Notes: generated by a model not told the origin, from the letters alone. A DNA stretch of 32,000 nt from Cereibacter sphaeroides 2.4.1 (GCF_000012905.2 NC_007490.2:1-32000); one strand, 5' to 3'. Shown: positions 12,429 through 27,764, counted from the stretch's first letter. Numbers and translations: made by a program.

Positions 12429-12829
12429 ATGCGGGCCGAACAGGGAACAATGTCGAAGCACAACCGTGTCGCCAAGGCGATCAGCTACATGTTCAAGAAG
12501 GACCGATGGAATACCTTCACGCTCTTCCTCGAGGATGAGCGCATCTGCCTGACAAACAATGCTGCTGAGCGCGCACTGCGCGGTATCGCCTTGGGACGGA
12601 AAGCCTGGCTCTTCGCCGGATCCGAGCGCGGTGGCGACCGCGTTGCCTTCATGAATTCCCTGATCGCCACCGCCAAGATAAACGACATAGAGCCGCAAGC
12701 CTGGCTCGCCGACGTCCTCGCAAGACTGCCAAAGACAACTGCCTCACGGGTGCCGGACCTTCTGCCGTGAACTTCCAGCCAACAAAGTGCCAGCTCGCAG
12801 CGTGACCAAGGCCTACGCCGGATGCTTAC
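12429..12829 (+). mobile_element. IS66-family fragment: C-terminal ~105 aa of TnpC plus terminal inverted repeat
   Basis: 'ICLTNNAAERALRGIALGRKAWLFAGSERGG...IEPQAWLADVL' is the TnpC C-terminus. The IS66-type end 'gccggatgcttac' finishes at 12829. Confidence 0.75.
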
Positions 12830-12852: not shown

Positions 12853-13503
12853 TCAGTTCAATACGGGATACGCCGCGAACACCAGATCGTAAGCGACCAA
12901 TCCCGCCAACCAGATAAGGACGACACCGAACAAGACGTTGATCTTGGCTTTGGCCAAGTTGCTCCCCCGCACGATCATGGGCGACGAAAACACAAGCGCA
13001 GTTACCCCATGGAGCACCAGCCCCAAGGCACCGCACAGCACGACGACGAACACCTTGAACGCTACAGACGAATCCGCCGGCACGAAGGCGCTAAGGATTG
13101 AGCCGAAGAAGAACGCCGCATTCGGGTTGGTCATGCTGACCAGAAATCCAGTAAGGAAGGACGCCCCCGACGGCGACGGCGGACGCCACTGAAGGTCGGC
13201 GGCGCTGGCATCCCTAAAAGCGCTGCGCAGCAGCTTAATCCCCAGCCAACTTAGGTAAGCAACCCCGACTAGCTTCAGTGCGGTCACCAGAGACGGAGCG
13301 TGCCGGAACAGTACCGCCACCCCAAGCATCGCCAGACTCGCCCACAGTAACGATGCGCCGGCGAGGCCGGCCGCCACCGCAAACCCGTGAACGCGACCAT
13401 GTTGAACCGACGTGCTGATGACCAACACCATGTTCGGCCCCGGTGAGAGCCACGCGAGAAAATTAATCACTACGATAGACGTGATCGCGAGCGTCGTGTC
13501 CAT
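12853..13503 (-). CDS. LysE/RhtB-family amino-acid (or small-metabolite) exporter
   Basis: 'FLAWLSPGPNMVLVIS' is the family N-terminal motif. About six hydrophobic helices over 216 aa. Confidence 0.8.
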   Translation of the reverse strand: MDTTLAITSIVVINFLAWLSPGPNMVLVISTSVQHGRVHGFAVAAGLAGASLLWASLAMLGVAVLFRHAPSLVTALKLVGVAYLSWLGIKLLRSAFRDASAADLQWRPPSPSGASFLTGFLVSMTNPNAAFFFGSILSAFVPADSSVAFKVFVVVLCGALGLVLHGVTALVFSSPMIVRGSNLAKAKINVLFGVVLIWLAGLVAYDLVFAAYPVLN

Positions 13504-13509
13504 GACCTG

Positions 13510-14601
13510 TCAGTCCGTTCTCAGATGCCAGATGATCCGGCGGCAATGCGGGTCCGCCGTCGCGAGCCGCTCCTGGCCACCCCCCGGCCAGAGACGCAGT
13601 GCCAGATGAGGCTCGGCATTCCGATCCAGCTCGAATGAGAGCCAAGCGACCGGGCTCTGAGAAGTTGCGTGCGCGCCGATGGTTTCCATATGCTCCGCTA
13701 TGGCTACCTGGCTGTCCGACGGCAGGTAGCTGAACATCAGGGAATGAAACAGCACTCGCGCGACACCTGGAATGCCCGGCAGGCGAAGACGGTTTAGAAC
13801 CCAATCAGATGCGTTACCCTGCTCTATCGGCACAGGATCGTCCAGAAACAGAGAGATCGCCTGGGCAATCCTGCGGTGGCGCTGTTCCTGATCCGGCCAG
13901 ATGTAAGCGTGCGCCCTCTCCCGGCCGACCGCGTTGGTCACATCGATGGGCGCCAAGTCACAGCCGCACCGCGATACGATCCGAGGCTCCGGCTCGCGCG
14001 GCGATGGCCCGATCCAATCGGGATGCAGAACTAGTGGCGAGCCCGGATTGCCAGCTTTGCGGCCGCTCAATACGTAGGCATAGCGATCAAGGATCAGGTT
14101 CAGGCCAGCGCTCGTCCCAATTTCGAACACCGACAATGGGCACCCGGTTCGCCCGGCGACCTCCATCATGCCTGCGTAAAGCAGAGCCGCGCGCCCGACC
14201 TCGTTGGTCTGCGGCGCATGTTCCAGCCAAGACGAAAGAAACTCATCGTTTTCGGCGATCGCTTCCGCCAAGAGCCGCTCGAATGCAACAGGCCCAACGC
14301 TCGAATTAGGAGGGTAAGCCTTGGCGAGATCGCATGAAGGTCTCCGGCGGACAAGCGCATGCAGGGCGCCTGCCACCCGCAGTGCCAGCGCATCGGCCGT
14401 CGCGCATGGATTGCCGTCCCATGTCAAGATGCGTGTGCCGAACCGCGTGTGCCCGTTAAGAACCCGAAGCACACTTCGTAGCAGAGCCGCCGTGAATGTT
14501 GAGCCGAACCTCTCGCAGAGCTCCGCCTGATCCGCAAACGACGCGCGCACCATCTGTGATCTCACGTCTACCTCACCCAATCTCAGCGTCTCGTCAATCA
14601 T
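13510..14601 (-). CDS. DUF2332-like protein (methyltransferase-like fold, function unknown)
   Basis: 'SVFEIGTSAGLNLILDRYAY', 'WIGPSP' and 'RCGCDLAPID' match my recollection of DUF2332. GGTGGAG Shine-Dalgarno. Ends 6 bp upstream of the LysE gene. Confidence 0.6.
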   Translation of the reverse strand: MIDETLRLGEVDVRSQMVRASFADQAELCERFGSTFTAALLRSVLRVLNGHTRFGTRILTWDGNPCATADALALRVAGALHALVRRRPSCDLAKAYPPNSSVGPVAFERLLAEAIAENDEFLSSWLEHAPQTNEVGRAALLYAGMMEVAGRTGCPLSVFEIGTSAGLNLILDRYAYVLSGRKAGNPGSPLVLHPDWIGPSPREPEPRIVSRCGCDLAPIDVTNAVGRERAHAYIWPDQEQRHRRIAQAISLFLDDPVPIEQGNASDWVLNRLRLPGIPGVARVLFHSLMFSYLPSDSQVAIAEHMETIGAHATSQSPVAWLSFELDRNAEPHLALRLWPGGGQERLATADPHCRRIIWHLRTD

Positions 14602-14819: not shown

Positions 14820-14987
14820 TCACGCAGCCATTTTCAGCTTCATGGTGGGTGTGACCCCGCCGATGCCCATGTTGGTGAGTCTGTTGTTGTAGGTCCAGAG
14901 CCGTGGGGTGGCGATCTGCTGCACTTCTTCGTTGGTTTCAAAGATGTAGAGGCTTGCCGCACGACTAGCAGGCTGCTGAATTTGTCG
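14820..14987 (-). pseudogene. C-terminal fragment of an rve-type (IS3-family-like) transposase, cut by the IS66 end at 14988
   Basis: 'LWTYNNRLTNMGIGGVTPTMKLKMAA*' is a typical integrase-core C-terminus. Confidence 0.5.
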
Positions 14988-16193
14988 GTAAGCGCCTCGC
15001 CGATCCCCTAAGCGGCTCGGCTTGACGTCTTCCGGAAGTGCCACGGCATCAGGTCTTCGATCCGGCTTGCCGGGTGACCATTGAGGATCGCGCGTAGGGT
15101 TTCGGCGATATAGCTCACCGGGTTCACGTCGCTCATCTTGCAGGTGGCCACGAGCGAGGCGAGCATTGCCCAATTCTCGGCGCCGACCTCGTGACCGGCG
15201 AACAACGCATTTTTGCGTGTGAGGGCCACCCTGCGGATCTGGTTCTCGACCGGGTTGGTGTCCATCTCCAGCCGTCCGTCCTCGAGGAACCGGACCAGGC
15301 CCGGCCAGAGGCCGAGGGTGTAGCGGATGTCCTCTGCCAGCTTTGATGACCGTGGGATGCGGGAGAGCTGCACCTCGAGCCAGGGACGGAACGCACTCGC
15401 CGACAAGGCGCAGGGTGCCACCGTAATCCGGGCAGGTCTCGCCGGGATCGAACTCGCGGCGCTCGCGCGGCGTGTCGGGCGGCACCCGCGGACGGCGGCG
15501 CGGCGCCTTCTCCGGGGCTTCGTTGTCGCTTGGTTCATCTGACGTCCCGCAGACCGGCGCGGTCTCGACGCTTTCCGGCTCGGGTGGCGGGGCGACCTCG
15601 GCCTGAGCCACCTGCAGACTCTCGAGTGCGAACTCCAGCTGCTCGATCTCGCGGGCGATCTTCTCCGAGCCCTTGCCGAAGGCCTGCCGCTTCAGCCGCG
15701 CGATCCGCAGCCGGAGCGACTGCACCAGCAGGTCGTGCGCGCGCAGCGTGGCCTGCAGCTGAAGGATCATCGCCTTCAGCGCAGCAGGGTCGTCTGGCAG
15801 GGAAGAGGCGGTGAGCGACATGGCCATAGCTACCATGCCGATGCCAGAATGCCCAACAAAACAAGGGGAAAGCGGCGCTTTGACTCACATCCGCGTCGGC
15901 GCGCTCGTCCAGCGCGGCTGGCGCCAATCGATCCCTTCCCAGAGCATCGCCATTTGCGCCGGTGTCAGCGCAACCTTGCCCTCGGTGGCCTTCGGCCAAG
16001 GGAAGTGCCCGCGCTCGAGCACCTTGTAATAGAGGCAGAAGTCCTGCCCATCCCAGTGCAGGATCTTCAGCCGGTCGCCCATGCGCCCCCGAAACACCAG
16101 GAGCGTGCCGCCCGCCGGATCCTCGCCCAATACCTTCTTCGCCCGCGCGCAGAGCCCGGCAATCCCGCAGCGCATGACGCAGAACACCCACAA
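14988..16193 (-). mobile_element. Internally deleted IS66-family copy: IR, TnpC lacking its catalytic core, and TnpB truncated at its N-terminus
   Basis: The IR 'gtaagcgcctcgccgatcccc' starts at 14988. The TnpC N-terminus (MSLTASSLPDDPAALKAMILQLQ...CPDYGGTLRLVGE) and C-terminus (LEMDTNPVENQIRRVALTRKNALFAG...) lie in different frames and join near 15400. 14988-15300 is near-identical to 26971-27300. Confidence 0.8.
15885..16193 (-). pseudogene. tnpB: IS66 TnpB (orf2), N-terminally truncated
   Basis: 'LLVFRGRMGDRLKILHWDGQDFCLYYKVLERGHFPWP...LTPAQMAMLWEGIDWR'. Confidence 0.75.
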
Positions 16194-16279
16194 TCTGTGC
16201 CTTGGCGAAACGGCTATTCTTCATCCAAATCTCCTCGTCGATCTTGCCGAGAAAATCTGCTTCCGCATCTCTTTCTACA
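16183..16279 (-). mobile_element. Stub of an IS3-family (IS407-group-like) element: putative left IR plus the first 14 codons of orfA
   Basis: The minus strand reads 'TGTAGAAAG...cgacgaggagatttggATGaagaatagccgtttc' (MKNSRFAKAQIVGV). This is about 70% like the 24085-24180 end by eye. The exact IR tip is uncertain. Confidence 0.45.
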
Positions 16280-16431
16280 TGCTGCGGAATAGCCCGCAGC
16301 CATTACGCTGAATCAAAGCATGAATCCCATCTGGTGAGATGCGCAGCGGCTCCACTTCACACCATCCGCCAAATCTTAAGAAATTCCCAATTGAAGAATG
16401 AAATTTTCTTGCAGGTCGCTGGAATCAATTC

Positions 16432-16460
16432 TTGACAACCATAACGGGTATTTTTCAAAT
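16432..16460 (+). promoter_or_regulatory. Sigma70-like promoter candidate for the seven-gene operon
   Basis: TTGACA (16432-16437), 17-nt spacer, then TCAAAT (16455-16460), in an AT-rich stretch. AAGGAGG lies 6 nt before the ATG at 16517. Confidence 0.35.
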
Positions 16461-16516
16461 TTATCCTACCGCGGCGATTCTCGTTATCCGACAAGGTCGA
16501 CGCAAAGGAGGAAGCA

Positions 16517-17587
16517 ATGCGAAGCGAAGCGAAGAACCAGAAGCCCACGGCGTACCCGATGAAGGGAATCGATGACCTCCCCCTGCACGAAATTATTGAA
16601 CCCGCTCTGGATATCACCAGTCCGCAGGTAGCGTGTGTTGGGATCGGAGTTCGCGCGGTGTGCAACTACGATTGTGTTTACTGTTACGCTGGGCATTCCG
16701 ATAAGCGTGGCGACATGTCTGTCGAACAATACTTTGACGTGATGGAGCAGGCCGCCGAACTCGGCGTGAAGACAATCATCATGACCGGGGCCGGAGGCAA
16801 GTCAGAACCAGGCCTGTTCAAAGGCCTCCTGCCGATCCTGGAACGTGCGTCTTCGCTCGGCATGTCGACGGCGATGTTCACCAATGGGTCGCAGTTCGGC
16901 GACGACAAGGTCGCTCGCATCCACAACCTTTCTGCCGTCGAGTTGGCGCATAAGATCCGCGAGCTGAAGGTGTCACTGTTCATCGCCTGCGAGACCTTGG
17001 AGCCGGACCTCTATTCCAACATTACCAAAAAGCCGATCGCGCCGTTCCAGACCGGGCTCATTAATTTGATCGCGGCCGGTTTCATTGGGACGCCGGGCGA
17101 GCCGACCTCGGTGACGATTAGCAGCGTGATCATGCGGCAGAACTTCGAGGAGCTCCCGGTTCTTCAGAAATTTGCGCACAACAACGGATGGCAGTACATC
17201 TGCAAGTTCCCAACCCTCGTTGGAAGCGCGCTCGACCATCCCGAGCTGTTCTTCTCGCCCGAGGAAGCAGCGGAGCGCCACAGCATCGTCGCAGAGTTGC
17301 GCGACAAGCCGGAAACCCTGACCGTCACCCACAGCGGCGCCGAATACTGCCTAGTTAACCAGGTCGGAATGTCTTTCGACAACCTAGGCACGCCGCTGAA
17401 CTGTCTGTCGGGATGCGAGATCACTAGCCGCAAGGATATGAACCTTAAGTCCATGCGCCTCGCGGACATCGTTCTGCTCAAGAAGCACCTCGCCCACCAA
17501 GGTATCGGCAACTGCCCGAAGAAGGCGGTGTTTTACGACTTCAAGCAACCAAAGCTTGAAGCAGCGGCGTTCCATGGATTGTCTTGA
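16517..17587 (+). CDS. Radical SAM enzyme (MoaA/PqqE/viperin-like core, Cys-containing C-terminal region)
   Basis: 'VCNYDCVYCYAG' is the CxxxCxxC motif, and 'IIMTGAGGKSEP' is a GGE-like motif. C-terminal cysteines (YCLVNQ, NCLSGCE, GNCPKK) could bind an auxiliary cluster. Confidence 0.85.
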   Translation: MRSEAKNQKPTAYPMKGIDDLPLHEIIEPALDITSPQVACVGIGVRAVCNYDCVYCYAGHSDKRGDMSVEQYFDVMEQAAELGVKTIIMTGAGGKSEPGLFKGLLPILERASSLGMSTAMFTNGSQFGDDKVARIHNLSAVELAHKIRELKVSLFIACETLEPDLYSNITKKPIAPFQTGLINLIAAGFIGTPGEPTSVTISSVIMRQNFEELPVLQKFAHNNGWQYICKFPTLVGSALDHPELFFSPEEAAERHSIVAELRDKPETLTVTHSGAEYCLVNQVGMSFDNLGTPLNCLSGCEITSRKDMNLKSMRLADIVLLKKHLAHQGIGNCPKKAVFYDFKQPKLEAAAFHGLS

Positions 17588-17594
17588 GGCCGTC

Positions 17595-18647
17595 ATGTCG
17601 ATGTTCAACCCATCGTCCTCACCTAGAGACGCGACCCATCCGACCGCCCAAGCCGGGGATCGCTCAAACGGGTCTGCCGCACAGTATGTGGCCGGTCTCT
17701 CCTTCGAGGACTTCGTTGCTATGACGAAGTTCCGCCACCCCAGGCTGCACGGCCTGCTTGACCCGCATTGGCAATGCGACGGTCGGGCACAGGCGGAGGT
17801 GGACCGCCTAAACGTCCAATCTTGGGAGTTCGAGGGTCAGACCGAGGGCGGGCGTGGGAACGATTACAATCTGGCGCAACGCAACATTGACAACCGTCAC
17901 ATCGGGATGACCCGGCTGTTGCGGCTATTCGGCGAAGATGGGGACACACTCCCCGGCCCGCGGACGGTGATCTTGGACGTGCTAGCGGGCGACGGCACGC
18001 TGCGGAGATTTTGCGAACGGTTCGGAGGTACCTCGCCGGAAATCATCTCAGCCGACATGTCACGGCTCATGGTCGACGCCTGTCTGGCCCAAGGCTACCC
18101 CAGCATTCGTCAATCCGCATCGAAAAGCTTCCTGAAGGACGCGGTGCTTGACGGGGTGTTGATCGCCTATGGAAGTCACCACTTGACCAATCCTGAACGG
18201 CGCGAAGCGGCACGCGAAGCGCACCGGACCCTTAGGCGCGGAGGTCGGTTCGTACTCCACGACTTCGAAACGAACGGCCCCGTCGACAGGTGGTTTCGTG
18301 AGGTAGTAGACCCGTTCTCCGCAACCGGGCACCCGCACCCGCATTTTTCCGCCGACGAAATGCGGCAGATCATGTCCGATGCGGGCTTCCGCGACGCCAA
18401 AGTGCAGGCGATGGAGGATCCTTTCGTGCTCACCGGCGACACGCCACAGGCTGCTCGGCGCACTATGCTCCAGCACTTACGCATGATGTATGGGCTCGTA
18501 CGGCTGACGCTAGAGAGCGACGCGGACTGGGACCGGCTGGAGGCCCTTGCCGCCGACACCTTGGGAGAGATGACCATCCGCGCCGTCGATCGCCACTACG
18601 AGGCAACTCTAATGCGTGATGCCTTGGTCGCCGTCGGCATACGATAG
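17595..18647 (+). CDS. Class I SAM-dependent methyltransferase with a ~120-aa N-terminal extension
   Basis: Motif I is 'VILDVLAGDGT'. Also 'LIAYGSHHL' and 'LRRGGRFVLHDFE'. The ATG at 17595 lies 7 bp after the previous stop. Confidence 0.8.
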   Translation: MSMFNPSSSPRDATHPTAQAGDRSNGSAAQYVAGLSFEDFVAMTKFRHPRLHGLLDPHWQCDGRAQAEVDRLNVQSWEFEGQTEGGRGNDYNLAQRNIDNRHIGMTRLLRLFGEDGDTLPGPRTVILDVLAGDGTLRRFCERFGGTSPEIISADMSRLMVDACLAQGYPSIRQSASKSFLKDAVLDGVLIAYGSHHLTNPERREAAREAHRTLRRGGRFVLHDFETNGPVDRWFREVVDPFSATGHPHPHFSADEMRQIMSDAGFRDAKVQAMEDPFVLTGDTPQAARRTMLQHLRMMYGLVRLTLESDADWDRLEALAADTLGEMTIRAVDRHYEATLMRDALVAVGIR

Positions 18648-18721
18648 GCGGTTCCACCACCAGACCGGTCTCGCCCCGCAGGGCGCGACCCTACGGGTCC
18701 CAGCAGAAACGGTCTCTTCGC

Positions 18722-19732
18722 ATGCAAAGAAAACGAACCCTCATCAACGACGCAACGCTGCGCGAAGGGAATCAGGCTTCGGGCGTAAGGTTCAGCGTAC
18801 ACGACAGCGTAGCCATTGCCACCGCGCTTGACGGGATCGGCGTCGACATGATCGAGATCGGTCACCCGCTCGCCGGACCATACGAGCACCAGCGCACCGA
18901 GGCCGTTGCGAAGCTCGGGCTCGGCGCAAAGATCATTGCGCACGCCCGTGCACATCGCACCGATATTGAGGCCGTCAGCCGTACCGGGGCCACTTGGGTC
19001 GGGATCTTCCTGGGTGTCAACGACATCACGACGAAGGCCCGGGTGATCGGTCGCAGCACCACGGAACTGATCCGAATGGTCGCCGACGCGGTGAAGGTCG
19101 CCAAGGATTGCGGCTTGAACATCCGCTACAGTTGCGAAGATGCTAGCCGCACCAACACACTGTTCCTAGTGGACGTGTTCGGCGCGGCGATCGACGCAGG
19201 CGCCGACCGCATTTGCTACGCCGATACGCTCGGAATCGCCGAGCCTGCCGAAGTTGCGCGCAAGGTCACCCTGATGAAGTCCGAATTCCCCGATGCGGAG
19301 GTGGAGGTGCATCTGCACGACGACCGCGGCCTCGCCATGGCCAACTCGCTCGCCGCGATCGACGCCGGTGTCGACTCTATATCCGTCTCGGTGAATGCGT
19401 TGGGCGAGCGCTGCGGCATCACGGACCTAGCGACCTTACTCGTCAATCTTGGATTTCGAGGCGAGCGCGCACTGCCCGACATCTCGGAGCTTCGAGCACT
19501 GTCACGATTGGTCGCCATGTCATCGAATACGCCCTTCGACGCGCTGCGGCCGATCGTCGGCGACAACGCGTTCAAGCATGGATCAAAACTTCACCAACGC
19601 GCCACGCAGTACGAGCCGCGTGCCTACGACTGGATCAAGGAGTTCATCTACAGACATGATCAGCAGGCCGTTGGGCAGGCACCTGGCGAGGAACCGTCGG
19701 CTCCCGACCAAACGGTCAGCGAAATTTCGTAG
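18722..19732 (+). CDS. Homocitrate / 2-isopropylmalate / citramalate synthase-like enzyme (HMGL-like DRE-TIM metallolyase, catalytic domain only)
   Basis: 'INDATLREGNQ', 'MIEIGHP' and 'EVHLHDDRGLAMANSLAAIDAGV'. At 336 aa it has no LeuA-type regulatory domain. Confidence 0.85.
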   Translation: MQRKRTLINDATLREGNQASGVRFSVHDSVAIATALDGIGVDMIEIGHPLAGPYEHQRTEAVAKLGLGAKIIAHARAHRTDIEAVSRTGATWVGIFLGVNDITTKARVIGRSTTELIRMVADAVKVAKDCGLNIRYSCEDASRTNTLFLVDVFGAAIDAGADRICYADTLGIAEPAEVARKVTLMKSEFPDAEVEVHLHDDRGLAMANSLAAIDAGVDSISVSVNALGERCGITDLATLLVNLGFRGERALPDISELRALSRLVAMSSNTPFDALRPIVGDNAFKHGSKLHQRATQYEPRAYDWIKEFIYRHDQQAVGQAPGEEPSAPDQTVSEIS

Positions 19733-19806
19733 TCGATGCCCGACTGCGGCGCCCGTTTCGGCGCGCCGGAGTGAGCACAAGTCTTCCAGACGCGGGATGC
19801 GACGCC

Positions 19807-20175
19807 ATGAAGATTAAACTGATCTACACACCAACCGCGGATCCGACCAGTCCTTGGGACTACCTTTACATCTTGAAGGGCTTCTTCGACAGCAAGACCG
19901 ACTGCAGGATCACAGTTTGCGGTCTCAACATCACAGGATTGCTGTATCTCTTCCAGCCGAAGTGGATCGAGACCTGTTGGGACCGGCTGAACGAGCGGGT
20001 CCTTCAATTCGAGGCGCGGAACAAACTCTCTACCCTCCAGCAGCTGGAATTTGACGCCGCGATCAATCCCCACAAATCCCCCGATGCCTCGGACGTGACC
20101 TGCTACTCCCTCGGGCCGTTGAAATACATCGCTTCGGCGAATGGCTGGTACTGGGAGGGTTCATCCTATGCCTGA
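19807..20175 (+). CDS. Hypothetical protein (122 aa), no recognisable domain
   Basis: The ATG at 19807 begins MKIKLIYTPT.... Its 3' end overlaps the next gene by 8 bp. Non-artefactual composition (Trp/Tyr/Cys-rich) in a locally low-G+C stretch. Confidence 0.55.
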   Translation: MKIKLIYTPTADPTSPWDYLYILKGFFDSKTDCRITVCGLNITGLLYLFQPKWIETCWDRLNERVLQFEARNKLSTLQQLEFDAAINPHKSPDASDVTCYSLGPLKYIASANGWYWEGSSYA

Positions 20176-21490
20176 CAGCCTCGGCCACAAACGGTCGATT
20201 CCGCTCCCCCACATTGGTCTGGCGACGAACGACCCGTACAGGTCGCTGGTTGCGCCGATCTATCAGACCACGGCCTTCGAACTCCCGGAGGCCGACGAGG
20301 CCGCAGCGCTGTTCGCGCTGGAGAAGCTCACACCGATCTATGCGCGCACCGACAATCCGACGACGCGCGTCCTTGAGGAACGGATGCGGGCCGTCGAACA
20401 GGGCGAGGCTTGCATCTGCTTCGCCACTGGCAAGGCCGCGATAGTCGCGGCGATCTGCGCGGTCACCGGAGCCGGAGACAATATCGTTGCGTCACGCAAC
20501 CTGTTCTCAGGCACAATGGCAATGTTCTCCGCGACGCTGAAGAACTTGGGGATCAATGTCCGATTCACCGAGCAGGACACGGCCGAAGCGTTCGAGGCCC
20601 TAAGTGATGAACGCACTAAACTGTGGTATGCTGAGACCTTGTCAAACCCGCTGCTGAAGGTCTTCCCAATCGCCAGCGTCGCACGGCGATCGCACTCGCT
20701 CGGTATCCCACTGGTTATCGACAACACGCTGGGCGTGGGCCTATGCCAGCCGCTGGCGTTCGGCGCAGCGGTTTCGGTTGTCTCCCTCTCGAAATACGTG
20801 GCGGGCGATGGCTCGACTATGGGCGGAGCCCTAAGCGAAGGGAACTTTGAGTGGGCCAGCGCGCGTGACCGGTTTACTTGGCTGTTCCAGCCAGATCCCG
20901 CATTCGCTGGCGTTGTGTGGGCCGATCTTGCCCGCAAGCATCGCACTACGCCGTACATGCTGCGGCTTCGGTTCGTCATGCTGCGGGATTTCGGCGCTAC
21001 CTTAAGTCCATTGTCTGCCTTCTTGCTATCTCAGGCGACGGAAACGCTCGCACTGCGCATACAGCGCCATGCCGAATCCGCGCGTCGCGTCGCCACCTTC
21101 CTGGATGGCCACCCTCGCGTGCGATCGGTCTGTCATCCCACGATCGGTACGGCCGACGAGGTACGGCGAAATGCGGATACGATTCCCGGCGGCGCCTGCG
21201 GGATGGTGTCGGTCGACATCCATGGCGGCCAAGTCGCCGGACAGCGTTTCGTGGCGGGCCTGACGCTGTTCCGGCATGTGGCGACCGCCGGATCAAGCGC
21301 CAGCCTCGCCATCCATCCCTATTCCACGCAGCTGCGGCAATTGACGGAGGACGAGCGTCGCAGAACAGGCGTTCCGGAAGGATTCGTTCGCCTGTCAATT
21401 GGCTTGGAGGATCCGGACATGCTGATCGACGATCTTCAACAGTCTCTCGCCGCCTTGGATGGGGGGCCAGCGCCAGTCCTACCCGAATGA
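20168..21490 (+). CDS. Cys/Met-metabolism PLP-dependent enzyme (O-acetylhomoserine sulfhydrylase / cystathionine gamma-synthase family)
   Basis: 'APIYQTTAF', 'YARTDNPTT', 'ETLSNPLL' and 'VSLSKYVAGDG', which contains the PLP lysine. GGGAGGG 8 nt before the ATG at 20168. Confidence 0.85.
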   Translation: MPDSLGHKRSIPLPHIGLATNDPYRSLVAPIYQTTAFELPEADEAAALFALEKLTPIYARTDNPTTRVLEERMRAVEQGEACICFATGKAAIVAAICAVTGAGDNIVASRNLFSGTMAMFSATLKNLGINVRFTEQDTAEAFEALSDERTKLWYAETLSNPLLKVFPIASVARRSHSLGIPLVIDNTLGVGLCQPLAFGAAVSVVSLSKYVAGDGSTMGGALSEGNFEWASARDRFTWLFQPDPAFAGVVWADLARKHRTTPYMLRLRFVMLRDFGATLSPLSAFLLSQATETLALRIQRHAESARRVATFLDGHPRVRSVCHPTIGTADEVRRNADTIPGGACGMVSVDIHGGQVAGQRFVAGLTLFRHVATAGSSASLAIHPYSTQLRQLTEDERRRTGVPEGFVRLSIGLEDPDMLIDDLQQSLAALDGGPAPVLPE

Positions 21491-21525
21491 CCCCGTCAAT
21501 GCTCAACTTATTGCGAGAGGTAGCC

Positions 21526-22302
21526 ATGACCATAACGAATTCGAAGGCCGAGGCCTGGGAGCTTATCGGCAACCAGTTTTGGACCATTGGCCGGGTCGCC
21601 GCACGTCCAAGCGATCGTGAGAACGACATCTTTCTGGAGAACATCGTGCCCGGTAGCACCGTTGCAGTAATCGGCGCGTCCACGCGCTTCCTGATCGAGA
21701 AGGCCCTCGAACGGGGCGCGTCCGTGACCGTCTTCGACTTCTCCCAACGCATGTGCGACGACTTGGCGGAAGCACTAGCGGACCGCTGCGTAACCATCGA
21801 CCTTCTCGACATCACCGCCGAGATCCCCAAGGAACTTGCCGGTCATTTCGACTTCGTGCTGAACGACCGGCTGATCAACCGCTTCACCACCGAGGAGGCG
21901 CGGCGTGCCTGTCTCGGCATGCTCAGCCTCGTGGGCTCCGGGACCGTCAGAGCGTCGGTCAAGCTCGGCTTCTACGACATCGACCTGAAGCTGATCGAGT
22001 ATGGCGAGCAATCGGGTACCTTGGCGAAATTTTTCGATCCGAGCGACAAGACCTTCCACTTCCGTGAGGCAGGTGACGTACTCGACCGGGCGCTAGTCCC
22101 GCACGGCTTAATCGACAAGCCGACATTGCTGGAATGGTATCGCCGCCGCGGCAAGGAGACCCGCTTCGACGACGAGGACGTGCGCGCCTTGCTCAGCCAC
22201 GACGTCGTGAATGCCAGAGGGTACGTCACCCTTGAAAAGGCGGTTGAACTTCCGGATGCACCGAACACGATGCTCTATCAGTTCTCGCGGCGGGCAGGAT
22301 AG
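21526..22302 (+). CDS. Methyltransferase-fold (Rossmann-like) protein, divergent
   Basis: 'STVAVIGASTRFLIEKALERGASVTVFDFSQRM' and 'FDFVLNDRLINRF' resemble motifs I, II and IV. GAGAGG before the ATG at 21526. An alternative ATG at 21487 forms an ATGA overlap with the previous stop. Confidence 0.55.
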   Translation: MTITNSKAEAWELIGNQFWTIGRVAARPSDRENDIFLENIVPGSTVAVIGASTRFLIEKALERGASVTVFDFSQRMCDDLAEALADRCVTIDLLDITAEIPKELAGHFDFVLNDRLINRFTTEEARRACLGMLSLVGSGTVRASVKLGFYDIDLKLIEYGEQSGTLAKFFDPSDKTFHFREAGDVLDRALVPHGLIDKPTLLEWYRRRGKETRFDDEDVRALLSHDVVNARGYVTLEKAVELPDAPNTMLYQFSRRAG

Positions 22303-22310
22303 AGACGGCG

Positions 22311-24074
22311 ATGTGCGGAATCTACGGCTTTTCGCGCGCGCCGGGATCAACATTCGACGGTGCACGGTTCCTGAACGACGCCCTTAGTAGCCAATCGCAT
22401 CGTGGACCTGACGGGGTGGGCGTCCATATCGGCGAGGCGGCGGGTGTTGGGATGGCGCGCCTGCGGGTCCGCGCGCCACTCGGAGAACCCCAGCCGATAC
22501 CGATGGCGGACGCCGGGTACGCCGCATACAATGGCGAAGTCTATCACAACTATCTTGGGCGCACGCCGGATGGCGGCGCAGGCGAGGTAGACTGCCTAAC
22601 CTCCCCTTCCGTCGACGGCATGTACTCGCTGCTGAAGATTAACGCACTTGGCACCACCTTGGAGATCCAGCGTGACACGTATGGCATCAAACCCTTGTTC
22701 GTGCGCAAGCACCGAGGAGCGCTGGCCTTCTCATCAGAAAAGCAGCCCCTAATCCAAGGCTTGGGGAAGATCCGGCTTAGGCGCGAGGCCATCGCTCAAT
22801 ACCTTGCGTTCGGCCGGCCGATCGACGGCCTCGGCTTCTACGAGGGACTACGCTCGATCCCAGCGGGCGGGCGGTTGAGCGCCTCAGGCGACACTTTGGT
22901 CCAGGCCTCGGCATCCCGGGACATCGCACAACGGATCACCGGAGCCACCCTCCGAGCCCCGCCGTGCCACGAGGAGGTCCGGGAGGCCATTCGCGACGCC
23001 GTAGGCCGAACTCTGGTCTCCAATCGGAAGGTCGGCGTTGCGGTCAGTGGCGGGTTGGATTCGACGATCCTGTGCAGCGAGCTCGATTCGCTGGGCATCA
23101 CCGATCTAGATCTCATCAGTATCCAAGCGTTAGGCTCCCAGGATGGAATTACCGACCTCTCCGCTCTTGAGCTTAAGGGCGAGGCTTGGAAATCTTGGCG
23201 GCTCACCGCCAGCCGCTTCGACCCAGCTACCTACTGGCGGGACCTTCGCCGGGCGATCGCCATCTTGGGCGAGCCGACCCAGATGACCAGCGCGCCGCTC
23301 TATCTCGGGCTGGCGGAGAAAGCGGCCGAGGCCGGAGTCGTCGTTCTGCTGCTAGGGGAGGGGGCGGACGAGTTGTTCTGCGGGTATCGAAGCTACCTGC
23401 CCATGTTGTCCGGCTGGTCCCTTCGCGATTTCCTGTTCCGACCTTTGGAGCGCGCCGTCTGCCAACGGCTGTTCTCAGGCGAGATCCAAGCTCGGTGCGC
23501 CGCAGCACTCGACGTCTTTACGAGGGCCCTGCCCGAAGGGGACCAATGGACGCAGCTGCGCGCCGCTGAAATGAGTCACAATTTGGAGCCTCTTCTCCTG
23601 CGCGCCGACCACACGCTCATGCGCTGCTCGATCGAGGGGCGCACCCCGTTTCTGCACGGCGATGTCGCAGACTTGGCATTTAGCCTTCCAATCGACTCGC
23701 TACTGAGCCCGAACCAGACCAAAGTGTTTCTGCGCCAAGCCTACTTCCGGGACCTGCCGGCCCACTTCAGCACCGAAATCAAAAAGCCATTTCGTGCGCC
23801 GGTTGCCACTTGGTTCGTCGGGCCGCTGAAAGCGTGGTTGACCGAGGAGTTCTCGCGGCAAGAAGCGGTGTTCGCCTGTCTGGGAATCGAGCCCGGAGGA
23901 CTGGAGCACGTGTTGACCAAGACGGCCCAAGGCCATGCGAGAATGGCGAAGGTTGCCTTCTGTCTCCTCACCCTGGGCTTCTGGATTGACTGGCTGATGG
24001 AAAATGACCTGATTGACGAACCGGACATCGCGCGCGCCCATCGCATGGGCAACGAGGGTCCAGCGAAACGGTGA
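22311..24074 (+). CDS. Asparagine synthetase (glutamine-hydrolysing)-like amidotransferase / adenylating enzyme
   Basis: 'MCGIYG' gives the Ntn Cys2. 'VGVAVSGGLDSTIL' is the PP-loop. Also 'LLLGEGADELFCGY'. 587 aa. Confidence 0.85.
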   Translation: MCGIYGFSRAPGSTFDGARFLNDALSSQSHRGPDGVGVHIGEAAGVGMARLRVRAPLGEPQPIPMADAGYAAYNGEVYHNYLGRTPDGGAGEVDCLTSPSVDGMYSLLKINALGTTLEIQRDTYGIKPLFVRKHRGALAFSSEKQPLIQGLGKIRLRREAIAQYLAFGRPIDGLGFYEGLRSIPAGGRLSASGDTLVQASASRDIAQRITGATLRAPPCHEEVREAIRDAVGRTLVSNRKVGVAVSGGLDSTILCSELDSLGITDLDLISIQALGSQDGITDLSALELKGEAWKSWRLTASRFDPATYWRDLRRAIAILGEPTQMTSAPLYLGLAEKAAEAGVVVLLLGEGADELFCGYRSYLPMLSGWSLRDFLFRPLERAVCQRLFSGEIQARCAAALDVFTRALPEGDQWTQLRAAEMSHNLEPLLLRADHTLMRCSIEGRTPFLHGDVADLAFSLPIDSLLSPNQTKVFLRQAYFRDLPAHFSTEIKKPFRAPVATWFVGPLKAWLTEEFSRQEAVFACLGIEPGGLEHVLTKTAQGHARMAKVAFCLLTLGFWIDWLMENDLIDEPDIARAHRMGNEGPAKR

Positions 24075-24136
24075 CCTGCTCCCCTGAAAAGTCCGCGGTT
24101 TGAGGTTAGCCTGTTCTCCAAACGAGGAGACAGACG

Positions 24137-24292
24137 ATGCGGAAAAGCCGTTTCAGCGAAGAGCATATCATTGGCATTCTGAAGGAGAACCAAGCCAGGA
24201 TAGGCGCCAAGGAGCTCTGCCGGAAGCACGGCGTCAGCGATGGCACGTTTTACAAGTGGCGTTCGAGGTCAGCTCCGTGCCGTTGTAGCTGA
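24137..24292 (+). pseudogene. IS3/IS407-type orfA, first ~44 codons only
   Basis: 'MRKSRFSEEHIIGILKENQARIGAKELCRKHGVSDGTFYKWRSR', followed by unrelated residues. Confidence 0.7.
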
Positions 24293-24335: not shown

Positions 24336-25907
24336 CTATCCGCGGAAGTTCCAGGGCATCAGTTCCGCGATGTCGCTCTGCATGTGCTGGTCGAGGATCT
24401 TGCGGAGGGTCGCTGCGATATACGCCTCAGGGTTCACGCCGTTCAGACGGCAGGTGCCGATCAGCGAGGCGATGCGGGCCCATGTCTTCGCCCCATCCGT
24501 GGAGCCGGCAAATAGTGCATTCTTTCTTGTAAGTGGAATCGGACGGATCGCGTTCTCCACCCCGTTGGTGTCCATCTCGAGCCGGCCGTCTTCGAGGAAA
24601 CGGGTCATGCCGTCCCATCTCTTCAGCCCGTACCGGATGTGCGTGCTGAGCTCGTTGGACGAGGAGAGATCCTGAAGGCAGCCCTCGAGCCAGGGCCGGA
24701 GCGCCTCGACGATGGGCCTCGAGAACTTCTGGCGGACCGCGACGCGGGCGGCGGGATCACGGCCGCGGATCTCCTTCTCGATGGCGTAGAGCTGCGCGAT
24801 CCGCGCGATCATCTCGTCGCAGATCGGCGAAGGCGTGTCCTGGCTGAACTTCACGAAGCGCCGCCTCCAATGTGTCCAGCAGAAGGCCAGGGTCCAGGGC
24901 TTCGCGGTCTTCTTGGGGTCGGCCAGCAGGTCGTAGCCGCCATGGCCGTCAACCAGCAGCGTACCGCCGGCGAACCCCTTCAGGATCTCCTGCGCGACCT
25001 TGCCGCCGCGGCTTTGCGAGTGATGGAAGACCACGATCGGAGGATCGCCGCCGCCCCAGCCCCGCTGGTCGCGCAACACCACCCATAGCCAGTCCTTGCG
25101 CACTGCGCCGGTCCCGGGCGCCAGCACGGGGGCGGTGGTCTCGTCCATCTGCAGCCGGTCGCTTCGTCGAAGCTCGGCCATCATCGCGTCGATCACCGGG
25201 GCCAGCAGCTGCGCCGCCCGCCCCGACCACTCGGCCAGCATCGTGCGGTCGAGTTCGATCCCCTGGCGCCGGTAGATGTCGGCCTGGCGGTAGAACGGAA
25301 GGTAGTCGCCGAACTTGCCCACCACGCTGTGCGCGACCAAGGCCTCAGTCGGCAGGCCGCGCGACACCAGCCATTCCGGCGCCGGAGCCTGGGCATGTTG
25401 TGCCCCCGCGCAGGTCCGGCAGACGTATTTCGGCCGGATCGTCACCAGCACGCGGAACTGCGCCGGGATGACATCGAGACGCTCGGTCCTGGTTTCGCCC
25501 ACCCTTTGCATCTCGCCGCAGCCGCAAGGACAAAGGATGCTGTCGGGCTCGATCACCCGCTCGATCCGCGGCAGGTGCTCCGGCAGGTGCCCCTTGTTGC
25601 GCTCCGAAGGCCGGGACGGAGCCTTCCGGGTGCCGAGCGCCTTCTCGGCCGCTTCGCTCGCCGCGGCCAGCATGCCGGCCGCCGCCTCGACATCCTCGAA
25701 CGGCAGGTTCCGTTGGTCGGGGTCGAGCTTCTCGGACTTCGAGCCGAAGGTGTCGCGCCGCATCTGTGCGAGCAGCCGCTCCAGCCGGGCGCGGGCCTCC
25801 TCGACCTCAACCAGGCGGGCCTCGGCCGCGGTGCGCGCGGCTTCCGCCTCGGCCAGCCGCCGCTCGAGATCCGCCACGCGGGCCGCACTGGTTCGGATCG
25901 ATGCCAT
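24336..25907 (-). CDS. tnpC: IS66-family transposase TnpC
   Basis: Leucine-zipper-like N-terminus, 'CPCGCGEM...', 'LQMDETTAPVL', 'LLVDGHGGY' and 'LEMDTNGVENAIRPIPLTRKNALFAGS'. ATG at 25907 is preferred over TTG at 25937. Confidence 0.9.
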   Translation of the reverse strand: MASIRTSAARVADLERRLAEAEAARTAAEARLVEVEEARARLERLLAQMRRDTFGSKSEKLDPDQRNLPFEDVEAAAGMLAAASEAAEKALGTRKAPSRPSERNKGHLPEHLPRIERVIEPDSILCPCGCGEMQRVGETRTERLDVIPAQFRVLVTIRPKYVCRTCAGAQHAQAPAPEWLVSRGLPTEALVAHSVVGKFGDYLPFYRQADIYRRQGIELDRTMLAEWSGRAAQLLAPVIDAMMAELRRSDRLQMDETTAPVLAPGTGAVRKDWLWVVLRDQRGWGGGDPPIVVFHHSQSRGGKVAQEILKGFAGGTLLVDGHGGYDLLADPKKTAKPWTLAFCWTHWRRRFVKFSQDTPSPICDEMIARIAQLYAIEKEIRGRDPAARVAVRQKFSRPIVEALRPWLEGCLQDLSSSNELSTHIRYGLKRWDGMTRFLEDGRLEMDTNGVENAIRPIPLTRKNALFAGSTDGAKTWARIASLIGTCRLNGVNPEAYIAATLRKILDQHMQSDIAELMPWNFRG

Positions 25908-25975
25908 GGGGCGAGGATACCCCACAACCCGCTGCAATGCCTGCCGAAACGCCAGCCCGAGTCACCCTGCCGCGG

Positions 25976-26329
25976 CTATCCGGCCAGTCGCGGCCGCGGC
26001 CGCCGCTCGGCCCGGACCGCTCGCCAGTCCAGCCCTTCGATGAGGGCCGAGAACTGCGCCGGCGACAGCCGGATCACCCCATCGGCCGGCTTCGGCCAGT
26101 GGAAGGCGCCGCCCTCGAGCTTCTTGTAGACCAGAACGAGGCCGGTCTGGTCCCACACCAGGCACTTCAGCTGGTCACCGCGTTTCGAGCGGAACAGGTA
26201 GATCGCGCCGTTGTACGGATCGTGGCCCAGCACGCTCTGCACGATCAGCGCCAGCCCGGCATGGCCCTTTCGGAAATCGACTGGCCGCGTCGCCAGATAG
26301 ACCCGGGTGATCCCGCCCGGCAGGATCAC
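25976..26329 (-). CDS. tnpB: IS66 accessory protein TnpB (orf2)
   Basis: 'RVYLATRPVDFRKGHAGLALIVQ...IYLFRSKRGDQLKCLVWDQTGLVLVYKKLEGGAFHWP'. Confidence 0.9.
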   Translation of the reverse strand: MILPGGITRVYLATRPVDFRKGHAGLALIVQSVLGHDPYNGAIYLFRSKRGDQLKCLVWDQTGLVLVYKKLEGGAFHWPKPADGVIRLSPAQFSALIEGLDWRAVRAERRPRPRLAG

Positions 26330-26748
26330 GCCGCGCTCCGGACCGCTGCGATCACCCGGCCGAGGTGGGCGGCGTCAAAGACGGCAGGCACGAGGATCCT
26401 GACGTCACCAATCTCCAGAGCGAGGCAGGCATCAGATCTACCACCAGCGCTTTGTCCCCCATCCGCCACGACGATCGGCACGAGCCCTAGCGCCTCATCC
26501 TCCGGCATCGGCAGAAGGCCCTCACGGGCCGCCCGCCGCCAGGCATGCAGCTGCGGCGCCGAGACTCCGTGCTTGCGCGCGACATCCGAAACCGACACCC
26601 CGTCGCGGAAGGTCTCCAGCACCATCGCGGCCTTCACATGCTCCGGCCACCGCCGCCTACCGGTCGGACCCGTCACAACCTCGATACGACCGGCATATCC
26701 TTGCTCGTGACTGTGAGAAGTTACGTATGTTTGTACGTCCGTATCCAT
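26326..26748 (-). CDS. tnpA: IS66 accessory protein TnpA (orf1)
   Basis: 'GRIEVVTGPTGRRRWPEHVKAAMVLETF...VARKHGVSAPQLHAWRR'. GGAGG 5 nt before the ATG at 26748. 4-bp overlap with tnpB. Confidence 0.85.
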   Translation of the reverse strand: MDTDVQTYVTSHSHEQGYAGRIEVVTGPTGRRRWPEHVKAAMVLETFRDGVSVSDVARKHGVSAPQLHAWRRAAREGLLPMPEDEALGLVPIVVADGGQSAGGRSDACLALEIGDVRILVPAVFDAAHLGRVIAAVRSAA

Positions 26749-26833
26749 CGACGCCTCCGTTGTTACAGGCGTCATCTCGGAAAGCGCTGCCGATCAGGCA
26801 ACGAGGGCGATGGGCGGTCGCTTACTGACCACC

Positions 26834-27764
26834 ATGCATGGATAGCCGCGCACCCGAGCGATGCTGTCGAGTTCACGGCCAACGCGCTGCCCTCGAACGC
26901 CATCCTCAAATGGCAGGAGGATCGCAAGGTCGAGTGGCACTATATCGCTCCGGGAAAGCCCATGCAGAACTTAAGCGCCTCGCCGATCCCCTAAGCGGCT
27001 CGGCTTGACGTCTTCCGGAAGTGCCACGGCATCAGGTCTTCGATCCGGCTTGCCGGGTGACCATTGAGGATCGCGCGTAGGGTTTCGGCGATATAGCTCA
27101 CCGGGTTCACGTCGCTCATCTTGCAGGTGGCCACGAGCGAGGCGAGCATTGCCCAATTCTCGGCGCCGACCTCGTGACCGGCGAACAACGCATTTTTGCG
27201 TGTGAGGGCCACCCTGCGGATCTGGTTCTCGACCGGGTTGGTGTCCATCTCCAGCCGTCCGTCCTCGAGGAACCGGACCAGGCCCGGCCAGAGGCCCAGG
27301 GTGTCCCGTATCGCCGTGCAACATCGGCGACATGAACGCCGGGGCGGTAACTCTCGGAGGCGATCCGGGCCTTCTCCTCATCGCTCCAGCGCCGCCGACC
27401 CGACGGACCCTCGACCACCTCGAGCCGCCCCGCAAAGCCATTCGGCGAGACGTCCATACAGCCGTCCATTTTGACGTCCACTCCCGTGCAAACACCCGAT
27501 CATTCGCACGTTCGGGAGTTCGTCGGCAGGAGGGGAGCGGCGTGGCGCTTGCTGCAGAACGGCTTCGTCGAGAGCTTCAATGGCCGCCTGCGCGACGAGT
27601 GCCTCAACGAGCACCTGTTCGCCAACCTGCGCCACGCTCGGGAGCTAATCTCGGCCTGGCGCGACGATTACAACCACCACCGCCCTGACACGAGCCTCGA
27701 CGGGCTCATTCCCAAGGGAGTATCACCAACGGTCAGTAGAGGACCAAACCCTGAACATAGCTAA
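26834..27764 (+). pseudogene. IS3/IS407-type orfB (integrase core), 5'-deleted and split by the mini-IS66
   Basis: 'SDAVEFTANAL...WHYIAPGKPMQN' (to 26970) continues exactly as 'GFVESFNGRLRDECLNEHLF...YNHHRP' from 27561. Confidence 0.8.
26971..27552 (-). mobile_element. 582-bp internally deleted IS66 derivative (both IRs kept; TnpC C-terminus fused to TnpA N-terminus) with 8-bp target-site duplication TGCAGAAC
   Basis: The ends are 'ttaagcgcctcgcc' and the reverse complement of 'ggcgtggcgcttgc'. TGCAGAAC occurs at 26963-26970 and 27553-27560. Removing the element restores the orfB reading frame. Confidence 0.85.

Follow-up and report, generated by a model that had tools for sequence, protein, structure and literature searches.

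A probable orphan biosynthetic gene cluster with a radical SAM enzyme on a conjugative plasmid of Cereibacter sphaeroides 2.4.1

The stretch of 32,000 nucleotides analysed here (NC_007490.2:1-32000, hereafter the window) comes from Cereibacter (Rhodobacter) sphaeroides 2.4.1. It contains a 7.8-kb region, 100% identical to the ~153-kb conjugative repABC plasmid of this strain, in which seven genes follow one another on the same strand (Table 1). They encode a radical S-adenosylmethionine (SAM) enzyme (rSAM), a methyltransferase (MT1), a homocitrate synthase-like (HCS-like) condensing enzyme, a 122-amino-acid protein (orf122), a pyridoxal phosphate (PLP) enzyme related to MetY (MetY-like), a second methyltransferase-fold protein (MT2) and an amidotransferase related to AsnB (AsnB-like). 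A model working on the bare DNA (hereafter the sequence-only reading) had proposed that these genes form an operon bracketed by insertion sequences (ISs) and direct an orphan small-molecule pathway. Its description of the seven open reading frames (ORFs) is accurate, including the junctions (7, 74, 74, -8, 35 and 8 nt) and the G+C counts made by hand (30, 29 and 38 of 60); all its motifs are found in the translations (CNYDCVYC, VLDVLAGDG, LREGNQ, HLHDDRGLAMAN, SLSKYVAGDG, MCGIYG and SGGLDS), and Pfam agrees with the class that it gave to each of six products. That the operon lies on a plasmid and is lower in G+C (60.7%, against 66.6% for positions 1–12800 of the window) had also been correctly recognized. 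We estimate at about 0.7 the probability that these genes belong to an orphan biosynthetic gene cluster (BGC) for a small, exported, polar metabolite; any specific chemical scheme for this metabolite deserves far less confidence.

Table 1. Genes and other features of the window; coordinates are counted from its first nucleotide
Feature	Coordinates	Strand	Annotation
rSAM gene	16517-17587	+	PF04055 radical SAM
MT1	17595-18647	+	class-I SAM methyltransferase, Pfam Methyltransf_23/11/25
HCS-like gene	18722-19732	+	PF00682 HMGL-like, homocitrate-synthase-like Claisen condensing enzyme
orf122	19807-20175	+	relic of B12-binding radical SAM gene
MetY-like PLP gene	20168-21490	+	PF01053 Cys_Met_Meta_PP, O-acetylhomoserine sulfhydrylase family
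MT2	21526-22302	+	SAM-binding Rossmann protein, = PDB 3IV6
AsnB-like gene	22311-24074	+	PF00733 Asn_synthase + GATase_7
LysE-family exporter	12853-13503	-	Pfam LysE 1.4e-30
DUF2332 gene	13510-14601	-	Pfam DUF2332 4.3e-104
Leader	16291-16516	+	AT-rich, presumed promoter region
Degraded IS66-family element	14820-16290	-	Pfam LZ_Tnp_IS66 + TnpB_IS66, annotation
Intact IS66-family ISRhsp5 (tnpC, tnpB, tnpA)	24336-26775	-	
Second 333-bp IS66 3' fragment copy	26972-27304		

The genomic context was read for ten rSAM homologues, with all proteins compared against all; the synteny rests on contigs recovered through exact-protein matches. The rSAM, MT1 and HCS-like genes form a collinear triad of adjacent genes wherever the locus is long enough for it to be seen, and no triad-bearing locus lacks an AsnB-like gene (that of L004 is broken). 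A gene encoding a DUF2332 protein (46–50% identity to that of the window, 33% for the fragment found in L009) accompanies the rSAM gene, at a distance of a few kb at most, in L002, L003, L004, L006, L009 and L010, i.e., in seven loci counting the window. The conserved unit is a five-gene cassette in which the rSAM, MT1, HCS-like and AsnB-like genes are constant and the DUF2332 gene is a near-constant fifth member, and this cassette recurs in about 10 metagenomic or metagenome-assembled genome (MAG) loci. The seven genes of the window, which had been presented as the unit, are not conserved as such: the MetY-like gene is restricted to the window and L003, MT2 to three loci and orf122 to the window. 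The sequence-only reading had made its proposal depend on the genes being found together in other genomes, and those of the cassette are.

The genes surrounding the cassette differ from one locus to another. Two ATP-grasp ligases, a transporter of the MFS family and an alpha/beta hydrolase are encoded in L009, and an AMP-ligase with a carrier protein as well as an MMPL transporter in L010 and L006. A PhyH dioxygenase is found in L004, L009 and L010, FabH-like proteins in L002, L006 and L010, and SCP2-like proteins in L002 and L006. Several loci carry a CoA-transferase III, an HMG-CoA lyase, enoyl-CoA hydratases or an MmgE/PrpD protein; the CoA-transferase III, HMG-CoA lyase and MmgE/PrpD families are enzymes of branched di- and tricarboxylic acids. 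The pattern is that of a conserved biosynthetic cassette set in varying tailoring contexts. Four tryptophan-halogenase-family genes and a cupin_8 gene (L002, a 198-kb JGI contig, positions 1-5797) lie a few kb upstream of one cassette and may constitute a separate or linked halogenation module. In another locus (L007, from a Gammaproteobacteria MAG, 1270-4266), the rSAM gene is located between transposases and is followed by a gene encoding an MmgE/PrpD-family protein, not by MT1 and the HCS-like gene.

In L003 and L009, the DUF2332 and rSAM genes lie side by side in divergent orientation, ~200 bp apart; in the window, 1.9 kb of IS debris separates them. The LysE-family gene is located 6 bp downstream of the DUF2332 gene on the same strand, and both have a G+C content like that of the operon (0.598 for the LysE gene). 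The two genes are probably co-transcribed and LysE probably carries out the export step of the cluster; MFS, RND or MMPL transporters are encoded in its place in other cassette loci. Because the DUF2332–LysE pair belongs with the cassette, the functional unit would extend further left than the seven genes and include a transporter. The absence of any regulator, nonribosomal peptide synthetase (NRPS), polyketide synthase or transporter, as claimed from the sequence, holds within the seven genes, but an exporter is encoded just outside. Concerning the DUF2332 protein itself, an AlphaFold2 (AF2) model (pLDDT 95) retrieves with Foldseek weak matches (E 1e-3 or worse, TM ~0.25), nearly all of which are class-I SAM methyltransferases, and the motif E-x-G-x-S-A-G-x-N is invariant or nearly so. 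The model weakly suggests a methyltransferase-like Rossmann fold.

The rSAM protein matches PF04055 (6.6e-11, 43.1 bits for a gathering cut-off of 29.5), which places it in the radical SAM superfamily, and reaches none of the NCBIfam family models. A search of 5.8 billion proteins retrieved no more than 17 homologues, with identities to it of 57% or above; scanning 185,579 species genomes for sequence patterns yielded a single locus, as did a scan of the metagenome collection. The identity is 70–87% across the recovered loci; the few that carry a taxon label come from, among others, Alpha- and Gammaproteobacteria. The cysteines of the CX3CX2C motif (C49-x3-C53-x2-C56) are invariant in the family, as are six others (C40, C158, C229, C278, C296 and C333), and because of these six additional cysteines, the enzyme probably carries an auxiliary Fe-S cluster. 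The best Foldseek matches of its AF2 model (pLDDT 79, C-terminus of low confidence) are SkfB (TM 0.60), SuiB, MoaA, DesII, PqqE and viperin; EpeE is also among the structural neighbours. The protein shares with such SPASM/twitch enzymes the CX3CX2C core, a partial TIM barrel and a Cys-rich C-terminal region, but differs from them by an identity of only 13–19%, TM values that do not exceed 0.60, the lack of a RiPP recognition element (RRE) domain and its membership of a separate 17-member family. It represents a new and very small family without any characterised relative, and would be of the twitch/SPASM type.

MT1, encoded directly after rSAM in the cassette loci (43–53% identity), has a ~110-aa N-terminal extension and, in the family alignment, invariant His-rich motifs (AYG-HH, HDF and TGH-H-HF). 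Two homologues lie in other contexts. The first (47% identity), on plasmid pTM2 of Tistrella mobilis (L019, 9932-13244), belongs to a mini-cluster encoding LysR, MT1, AsnB-like and LysE proteins, without rSAM or HCS-like genes; its AsnB-like gene is apparently frameshifted at the 5' end. This composition suggests that MT1 and the amidotransferase act there on an exported amino or dicarboxylic acid. The second (34% identity) heads an NRPS cluster of a Streptomyces sp. NBC_00829 plasmid (L020, 4777-20120) that also encodes a methylaspartate (glutamate) mutase, AsnA and a glutamate-synthase-related protein. Because of these neighbours, the contexts of the MT1 homologues hint at acidic amino or dicarboxylic acid substrates.

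The HCS-like protein matches PF00682 (1.4e-62, 211.9 bits) and is thus a DRE-TIM metallolyase; no regulatory domain was detected in the Pfam search, in agreement with its earlier description as a catalytic domain only. Its best NCBIfam matches are models of isopropylmalate synthases (IPMS) and HCS, but all scores are under the cut-offs of these equivalogs (nifV 251.5 for 462.9, LysS 264.5 for 413.6, leuA_bact 195.8 for 598.7), and its best PDB match is the Sulfolobus HCS 6ktq. Within the family (64–75% identity), the R-E metal/2-oxoacid motif (LREG), H-x-R, R-Y-S-C-E-D, ADT-G and H-x-H are conserved. The Arg and Ser of R-Y-S-C-E-D are at what we take to be the positions that bind the distal carboxylate of 2-oxoglutarate in HCS; IPMS carry a Glu at that Arg position. 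As the metal and oxoacid ligands and the HCS-type Arg and Ser are kept, the substrate would be a dicarboxylic 2-oxoacid of the 2-oxoglutarate type. Compared with homocitrate synthases (LysS/NifV/AksA), the enzyme has the same fold, metal ligands, catalytic residues and presumed carboxylate-binding Arg and Ser, but it is shorter (313–339 aa), scores below every equivalog cut-off and has HLHDDRG instead of HxHNDxG. Furthermore, the homoaconitase and dehydrogenase partners of homocitrate synthases are not encoded in the window. A large sister clade (45–54% identity) includes proteins from Streptomyces, Vibrio, cyanobacteria and others.

The AsnB-like protein (PF00733, 2.1e-46, 159.6 bits, and GATase_7) combines an N-terminal-nucleophile Cys glutaminase with a PP-loop synthetase domain, as AsnB-type amidotransferases do, but scores under the cut-off of the equivalog TIGR01536 (194 for 267); its identity with housekeeping asnB products is ~27%. 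The motifs MCGI(Y/F)G, HRGPDG and YNGE are kept in 10 of the 10 family members examined and the window protein has the PP-loop SGGLDS. Because the glutaminase Cys, HRGPDG, YNGE and PP-loop motifs are kept, the enzyme is predicted to be a glutamine-hydrolysing amidotransferase and not to be of the beta-lactam-synthetase or lasso-cyclase type. Beta-lactam synthetases and lasso cyclases are not known to carry the glutaminase Cys. These two assignments were considered and rejected, as the Cys is kept and the scores are far below the cut-offs (53 for 525 with the lasso model and 51 for 300 with the macrolactam model).

The three other genes of the window have a more restricted distribution. The MetY-like protein belongs to the Pfam family PF01053 (1.5e-92, 310 bits) and its closest PDB entries are O-acetylhomoserine sulfhydrylases and Fub7, with which it shares the full-length Cys_Met_Meta_PP fold and the catalytic Schiff-base Lys (SLSKYVAGDG). 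It differs from the MetY and Fub7 enzymes by a score under the cut-off of TIGR01326, the O-acetylhomoserine sulfhydrylase model (414.5 for 495.1), and by the residue following this Lys, the His usual in MetY-type enzymes being replaced by an Asp in the window and by a Thr in the 57% identical homologue of L003. The MetY-like enzyme is accessory and not a member of the cassette. Among the cassette loci, MT2 is found in the window, L003 and L009 (65–66% identity), always beside the AsnB-like gene. The sequence-only reading had recognized a methyltransferase fold, which fits with a weak match to Methyltransf_25 (2.4e-4), but this protein had already been solved in complex with SAM: it is identical to PDB 3IV6 (E 2.7e-172), deposited as a 'putative Zn-dependent alcohol dehydrogenase', whose bound SAM adopts an extended conformation (bioRxiv 10.1101/2022.05.16.491946). 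No functional study of 3IV6 was found in the literature, where it appears only in this fold-evolution preprint.

The third protein, orf122, had been left as an unknown protein of 122 aa, and it has indeed no Pfam match; however, it is what remains of a much larger enzyme. Only six homologues were retrieved when the complete set of 1.84 billion representative proteins was scanned with HMMER; the long ones are ~730 aa and carry B12-binding and Radical_SAM domains. Residues 1–92 of orf122 align with residues 3–94 of one of these homologues, P0259 (E 4e-18), and residues 80–120 with residues 521–557 of the same protein, including ANGWYWE (E 1e-4). Hence, orf122 does not qualify as a class B (B12-dependent) radical SAM enzyme, both catalytic domains being deleted. 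According to these alignments, it is the relic of a B12-radical-SAM gene that underwent an in-frame deletion of ~430 codons and lost its 3' end, and it is probably non-functional. Its G+C content at third codon positions (GC3, 0.748) equals that of the neighbouring genes, and it is absent from all other cassette loci; the 121/122-aa proteins of L002 and L006, considered as possible homologues, are SCP2-like and unrelated. An enzyme has been lost from the C. sphaeroides copy of the cluster.

Besides this gene loss, the locus bears the marks of several ISs. The bracketing seen by the sequence-only reading is real, with a degraded IS66-family element on the left and the intact ISRhsp5 on the right. 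The former, inserted between the DUF2332 and rSAM genes, includes a frameshifted tnpC (14820-15836) and tnpB (15885-16193). A 333-bp IS66 3' fragment is directly repeated (14989-15321 and 26972-27304, 99.7% identity) on both sides of the operon and ISRhsp5, which suggests a recombination or composite-element history. In addition, 5' fragments of an IS3-family orfA are found at ~16180-16224 (- strand, MKNSRF...) and, between the operon and ISRhsp5, at 24137-24270 (+ strand, MRKSRFSEEHIIGILKE...). These fragments, ~70% identical over ~60 nt, face outward from the ends of the operon, and each is truncated by IS66-family sequence. The C. sphaeroides copy is rearranged by ISs and partly decayed, and it may make a simplified product or none. 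The 226-bp leader upstream of the rSAM gene is AT-rich (46.5% G+C) and includes a strong ribosome-binding sequence, AAGGAGG (16506-16512), 4 nt ahead of the rSAM ATG. It is presumed to be the promoter region, as had been proposed; no strict sigma-70 consensus was found in it. Searches for Rfam families, including riboswitches, and for tRNA found none.

No description of the cluster was found in the literature. The best non-self matches of the HCS-like (43%) and AsnB-like (32%) proteins in the plasmid collection belong to a single copy of the PA1211-PA1221 cluster of Pseudomonas aeruginosa, which sits on a megaplasmid and is split by a prophage. PA1211-PA1221 is an orphan NRPS-type BGC that is induced by quorum sensing and RpoH. 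It encodes an adenylation–peptidyl carrier protein (A-PCP), a condensation (C) domain, hydrolases, PhyH, IPMS/HCS, a methyltransferase, an AMP-ligase, AsnB, TauD and an MFS protein (PMC9866376), and its product was still not assigned in a paper of July 2026 (PMC13351317). It has in common with the window an HCS/IPMS-like enzyme, PA1217, and an AsnB-like protein with an N-terminal Cys, PA1214 (the 43% and 32% matches, respectively), and with other loci of the family of the window PhyH (27–33%), the AMP-ligase (32–34%) and the MFS exporter. A locus of Streptomyces sp. CA-179760 (L018), for which no product was found in the literature either, is syntenic with PA1211-PA1221 and additionally encodes an aconitase and an ATP-grasp ligase. 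The proteins of L018 are closer to those of the window (49% for the HCS-like and 42% for the AsnB-like enzymes), and a 269-aa protein sharing 47% identity with MT2 is encoded between HCS and AsnB.

There are also clear differences. The window does not encode the A-PCP, C domain, TauD, PhyH, AMP-ligase or aconitase found in PA1211-PA1221 or L018, and neither MT1 nor MT2 resembles PA1216. Conversely, the radical SAM enzyme, MT1 and DUF2332 belong to the family of the window and not to the Pseudomonas and Streptomyces clusters. The HCS-like enzyme groups in a clade with PA1217 and the Streptomyces cluster enzymes, but the HCS of P. aeruginosa, Streptomyces and Bacillus have a C-terminal His-rich cupin-like tail that is lacking in the family of the window. 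From these comparisons, the cluster of the window is best described as a putative rare variant, containing rSAM and DUF2332 genes, of the unsolved PA1211-PA1221/Streptomyces cluster type. The proposal of an orphan small-molecule pathway thus stands insofar as no characterised pathway matching it was found in the literature, but the cluster has homologues in the orphan clusters of P. aeruginosa and Streptomyces. The exclusion of a phosphonate pathway is borne out, as no PEP_mutase domain was found in the ORFs of the window or in the genes called in the related loci. An IPMS-like protein with a PA1217-type cupin-like tail is also encoded by Bacillus cereus-group plasmids (L016, 42 Bacillus records), next to an alpha/beta hydrolase, two ThiF-family adenylyltransferases and DUF441. 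They may represent another cluster type, apparently uncharacterised.

Combining the predicted activities, the following scheme can be drawn for the cluster. The HCS-like enzyme would condense acetyl-CoA with a dicarboxylic 2-oxoacid of the 2-oxoglutarate type, giving a homocitrate-like hydroxy-tricarboxylate. The rSAM/MT1 pair, whose genes are adjacent and lie directly upstream, would perform one radical step and one methyl transfer on the substrate or on the product of this condensation; the His-rich MT1 may require a metal and methylate a chelating oxo- or hydroxy-acid. The AsnB-like enzyme would adenylate one carboxylate and convert it into a carboxamide with ammonia from glutamine, while MT2 (3IV6) and the DUF2332 protein would catalyse further SAM-dependent steps. 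In C. sphaeroides and L003, the MetY-like enzyme would transfer a 3-amino-3-carboxypropyl unit from activated homoserine onto a nucleophilic group of the intermediate, and would thereby take the part played elsewhere by ATP-grasp ligases or by an adenylation enzyme with a carrier protein. LysE would then export the product, an amidated and methylated acid presumably derived from a 2-oxoglutarate-type substrate. A bolder version, in which the cassette makes a new building block (a radical-modified, methylated and amidated derivative of the homocitrate or 2-oxoglutarate type) through a new rSAM reaction on a small carboxylic acid, e.g., a skeleton rearrangement or the formation of a C-C or C-S bond, is tentative, and we would put the odds somewhat against it.

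Several points weigh against this scheme. The substrates of all the enzymes are deduced from residues conserved at the family level, and the order of the steps is arbitrary. The structural neighbours of rSAM include peptide-modifying enzymes. The DUF2332 family is large, with at least 927 hits, and its members elsewhere stand alone in unrelated contexts; the role of this protein in the pathway could be resistance or something else than catalysis. Lastly, given the IS insertions and the B12-radical-SAM relic, the C. sphaeroides copy may be silent.

The putative orphan BGC is attractive for several reasons. C. sphaeroides 2.4.1 is genetically tractable and one component has been crystallised (3IV6), which makes the cluster easy to test. 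The rSAM family, tiny, highly conserved and without a characterised relative, looks promising for the discovery of new radical chemistry. The homology of the cluster with PA1211-PA1221 ties it to one that is strongly induced by quorum sensing and stress in P. aeruginosa and implicated in virulence. If the cassette does make a new building block, solving that of C. sphaeroides would also reveal the chemistry of PA1211-PA1221, since the HCS/MT2/AsnB trio is shared with this cluster type. An antimetabolite-type amino or dicarboxylic acid, if this is what the cluster makes, could have a bioactivity of practical interest.

Among the other explanations, the one that survives best is that the locus is a decaying remnant, i.e., a cluster that arrived on a mobile element and is now eroding in strain 2.4.1, where its ancestral product, or any product, has been lost. 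The internal deletion of the B12-radical-SAM gene and the IS66 and IS3 debris that part the DUF2332–LysE genes from the operon favour this explanation. Only five records of the plasmid collection contain the cluster, all derived from or labelled 2.4.1, and in one re-sequenced copy of the 2.4.1 plasmid (H77, 97.5% identity) MT1 is in two pieces. However, the six other ORFs are full length by comparison with homologues sharing 40–75% identity, the catalytic motifs are retained, GC3 is uniform and the native sequence upstream, including a strong Shine-Dalgarno sequence, is preserved over ~226 bp. Such a decay, which we consider a serious though minority prospect, is compatible with a small-molecule pathway for the family as a whole.

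It is considerably less probable that the cluster makes a warhead of the cystargolide/belactosin type, in which the HCS/IPMS-like enzyme produces an alkyl-malate-type acid, one carboxylate of this acid is transiently masked by a methyltransferase, the AsnB-like enzyme, as the adenylate-forming enzyme, cyclises the acid to a beta-lactone or beta-lactam and amino acids are coupled. AsnB relatives do include beta-lactam synthetases. In the cystargolide and belactosin pathways, a leuA-type Claisen hydroxy-acid undergoes methylation, ATP activation and joining to amino acids, a logic that has been established for CysG, CysF and CysE (PMC11427300). CysG, like BelI, is a carboxyl methyltransferase, CysF an AMP-dependent lactone synthetase and CysE a hydrolase, while CysC and CysD are ligases. 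L009 has a comparable complement, its two ATP-grasp ligases, alpha/beta hydrolase and MFS transporter adjoining the cassette, and PA1211-PA1221 encodes IPMS-like, methyltransferase, AMP-ligase and hydrolase functions. However, the glutaminase nucleophile and the other glutaminase residues kept in all members of the AsnB-like family point to amide formation. The window does not encode any AMP-ligase, ATP-grasp protein, CysF-type ligase or hydrolase, its ATP-using enzyme being a predicted glutamine amidotransferase; MT1 and MT2 do not have detectable sequence similarity to the CysG/BelI chains of the PDB; the HCS-like enzyme has substrate residues of the HCS type and not of the IPMS type; and the radical SAM and DUF2332 proteins have no counterpart in these pathways. 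Cystargolide/belactosin biosynthesis is the best characterised analogy in logic, the Claisen enzyme being the only one of its defining features present in the window. Another analogy concerns dapdiamide biosynthesis, in which the AsnB-like, glutamine-dependent DdaH amidates the free carboxylate of a dicarboxylic acyl group, DdaG is a ligase and the ATP-grasp DdaF adds amino acids. One of the ATP-grasp proteins of L009 weakly matches the DdaF model (2.5e-7), but the dapdiamide acid is fumarate, not a Claisen product, and this pathway is not known to include any HCS-like enzyme, radical SAM enzyme or methyltransferase.

The maturation of a ribosomally synthesised and post-translationally modified peptide (RiPP) encoded elsewhere, by an SkfB/SuiB-type rSAM, a lasso-cyclase-like AsnB and the methyltransferases, would account for the nearest folds of rSAM (SkfB, SuiB, PqqE and EpeE) and for weak NCBIfam matches to sactipeptide maturases and lasso cyclases. 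Nevertheless, tblastx and blastn comparisons of the 700 bp upstream of 12 rSAM genes did not reveal any conserved small ORF, which also bears out the earlier statement that no obvious precursor peptide is present. The CX3CX2C motif begins after only ~48 residues, which leaves no room for an RRE domain, and no leader peptidase is present. Moreover, the AsnB-like enzyme appears to be glutamine-dependent, and the HCS-like enzyme, the CoA-transferases and the lyases do not fit RiPP logic. We therefore regard a RiPP as very improbable. The same holds, even more strongly, for spare copies of primary-metabolism genes (leuA/nifV, metY and asnB) or for a NifB/NifV-like cofactor set carried by the plasmid. 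C. sphaeroides fixes nitrogen, and the family-level annotations are indeed IPMS/HCS, O-acetylhomoserine sulfhydrylase and asparagine synthase. However, when the test suggested by the sequence-only reading is applied, all enzymes score far under the NCBIfam equivalog cut-offs (see above for nifV, leuA, TIGR01326 and the asn_synth model TIGR01536). The synteny is kept across Alpha- and Gammaproteobacteria alongside secondary-metabolism genes, rSAM does not have the NifB architecture nor NifB among its closest structures, and the HCS-like enzyme groups with the PA1217/Streptomyces cluster clade. Lastly, an anti-phage defence module with a viperin-like rSAM, evoked by the matches of rSAM to the PADLOC pVip models (4.7e-13) and to NCBIfam viperin_w_prok (1.3e-10) and by the location of the locus among toxin-antitoxin genes of the plasmid, can hardly be retained, as the match covers only the generic N-terminal rSAM core (residues 47–137, model positions 8–91 of 257) with 41 bits for a cut-off of 180 and no other gene matches a defence model, save for a weak generic methyltransferase match of MT1.

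Two other features of the window concern the plasmid backbone. Two very G+C-rich tandem arrays (1131-1900, 75 bp x 10.2, and 2276-3028, 137 bp x 5.5), located just upstream of a gene encoding a ParA-like AAA ATPase (~3165-3890), may be plasmid partition or iteron repeats. The backbone also contains a direct repeat of 530 bp (5425-5952 and 11412-11940) whose two copies share 96.6% identity.

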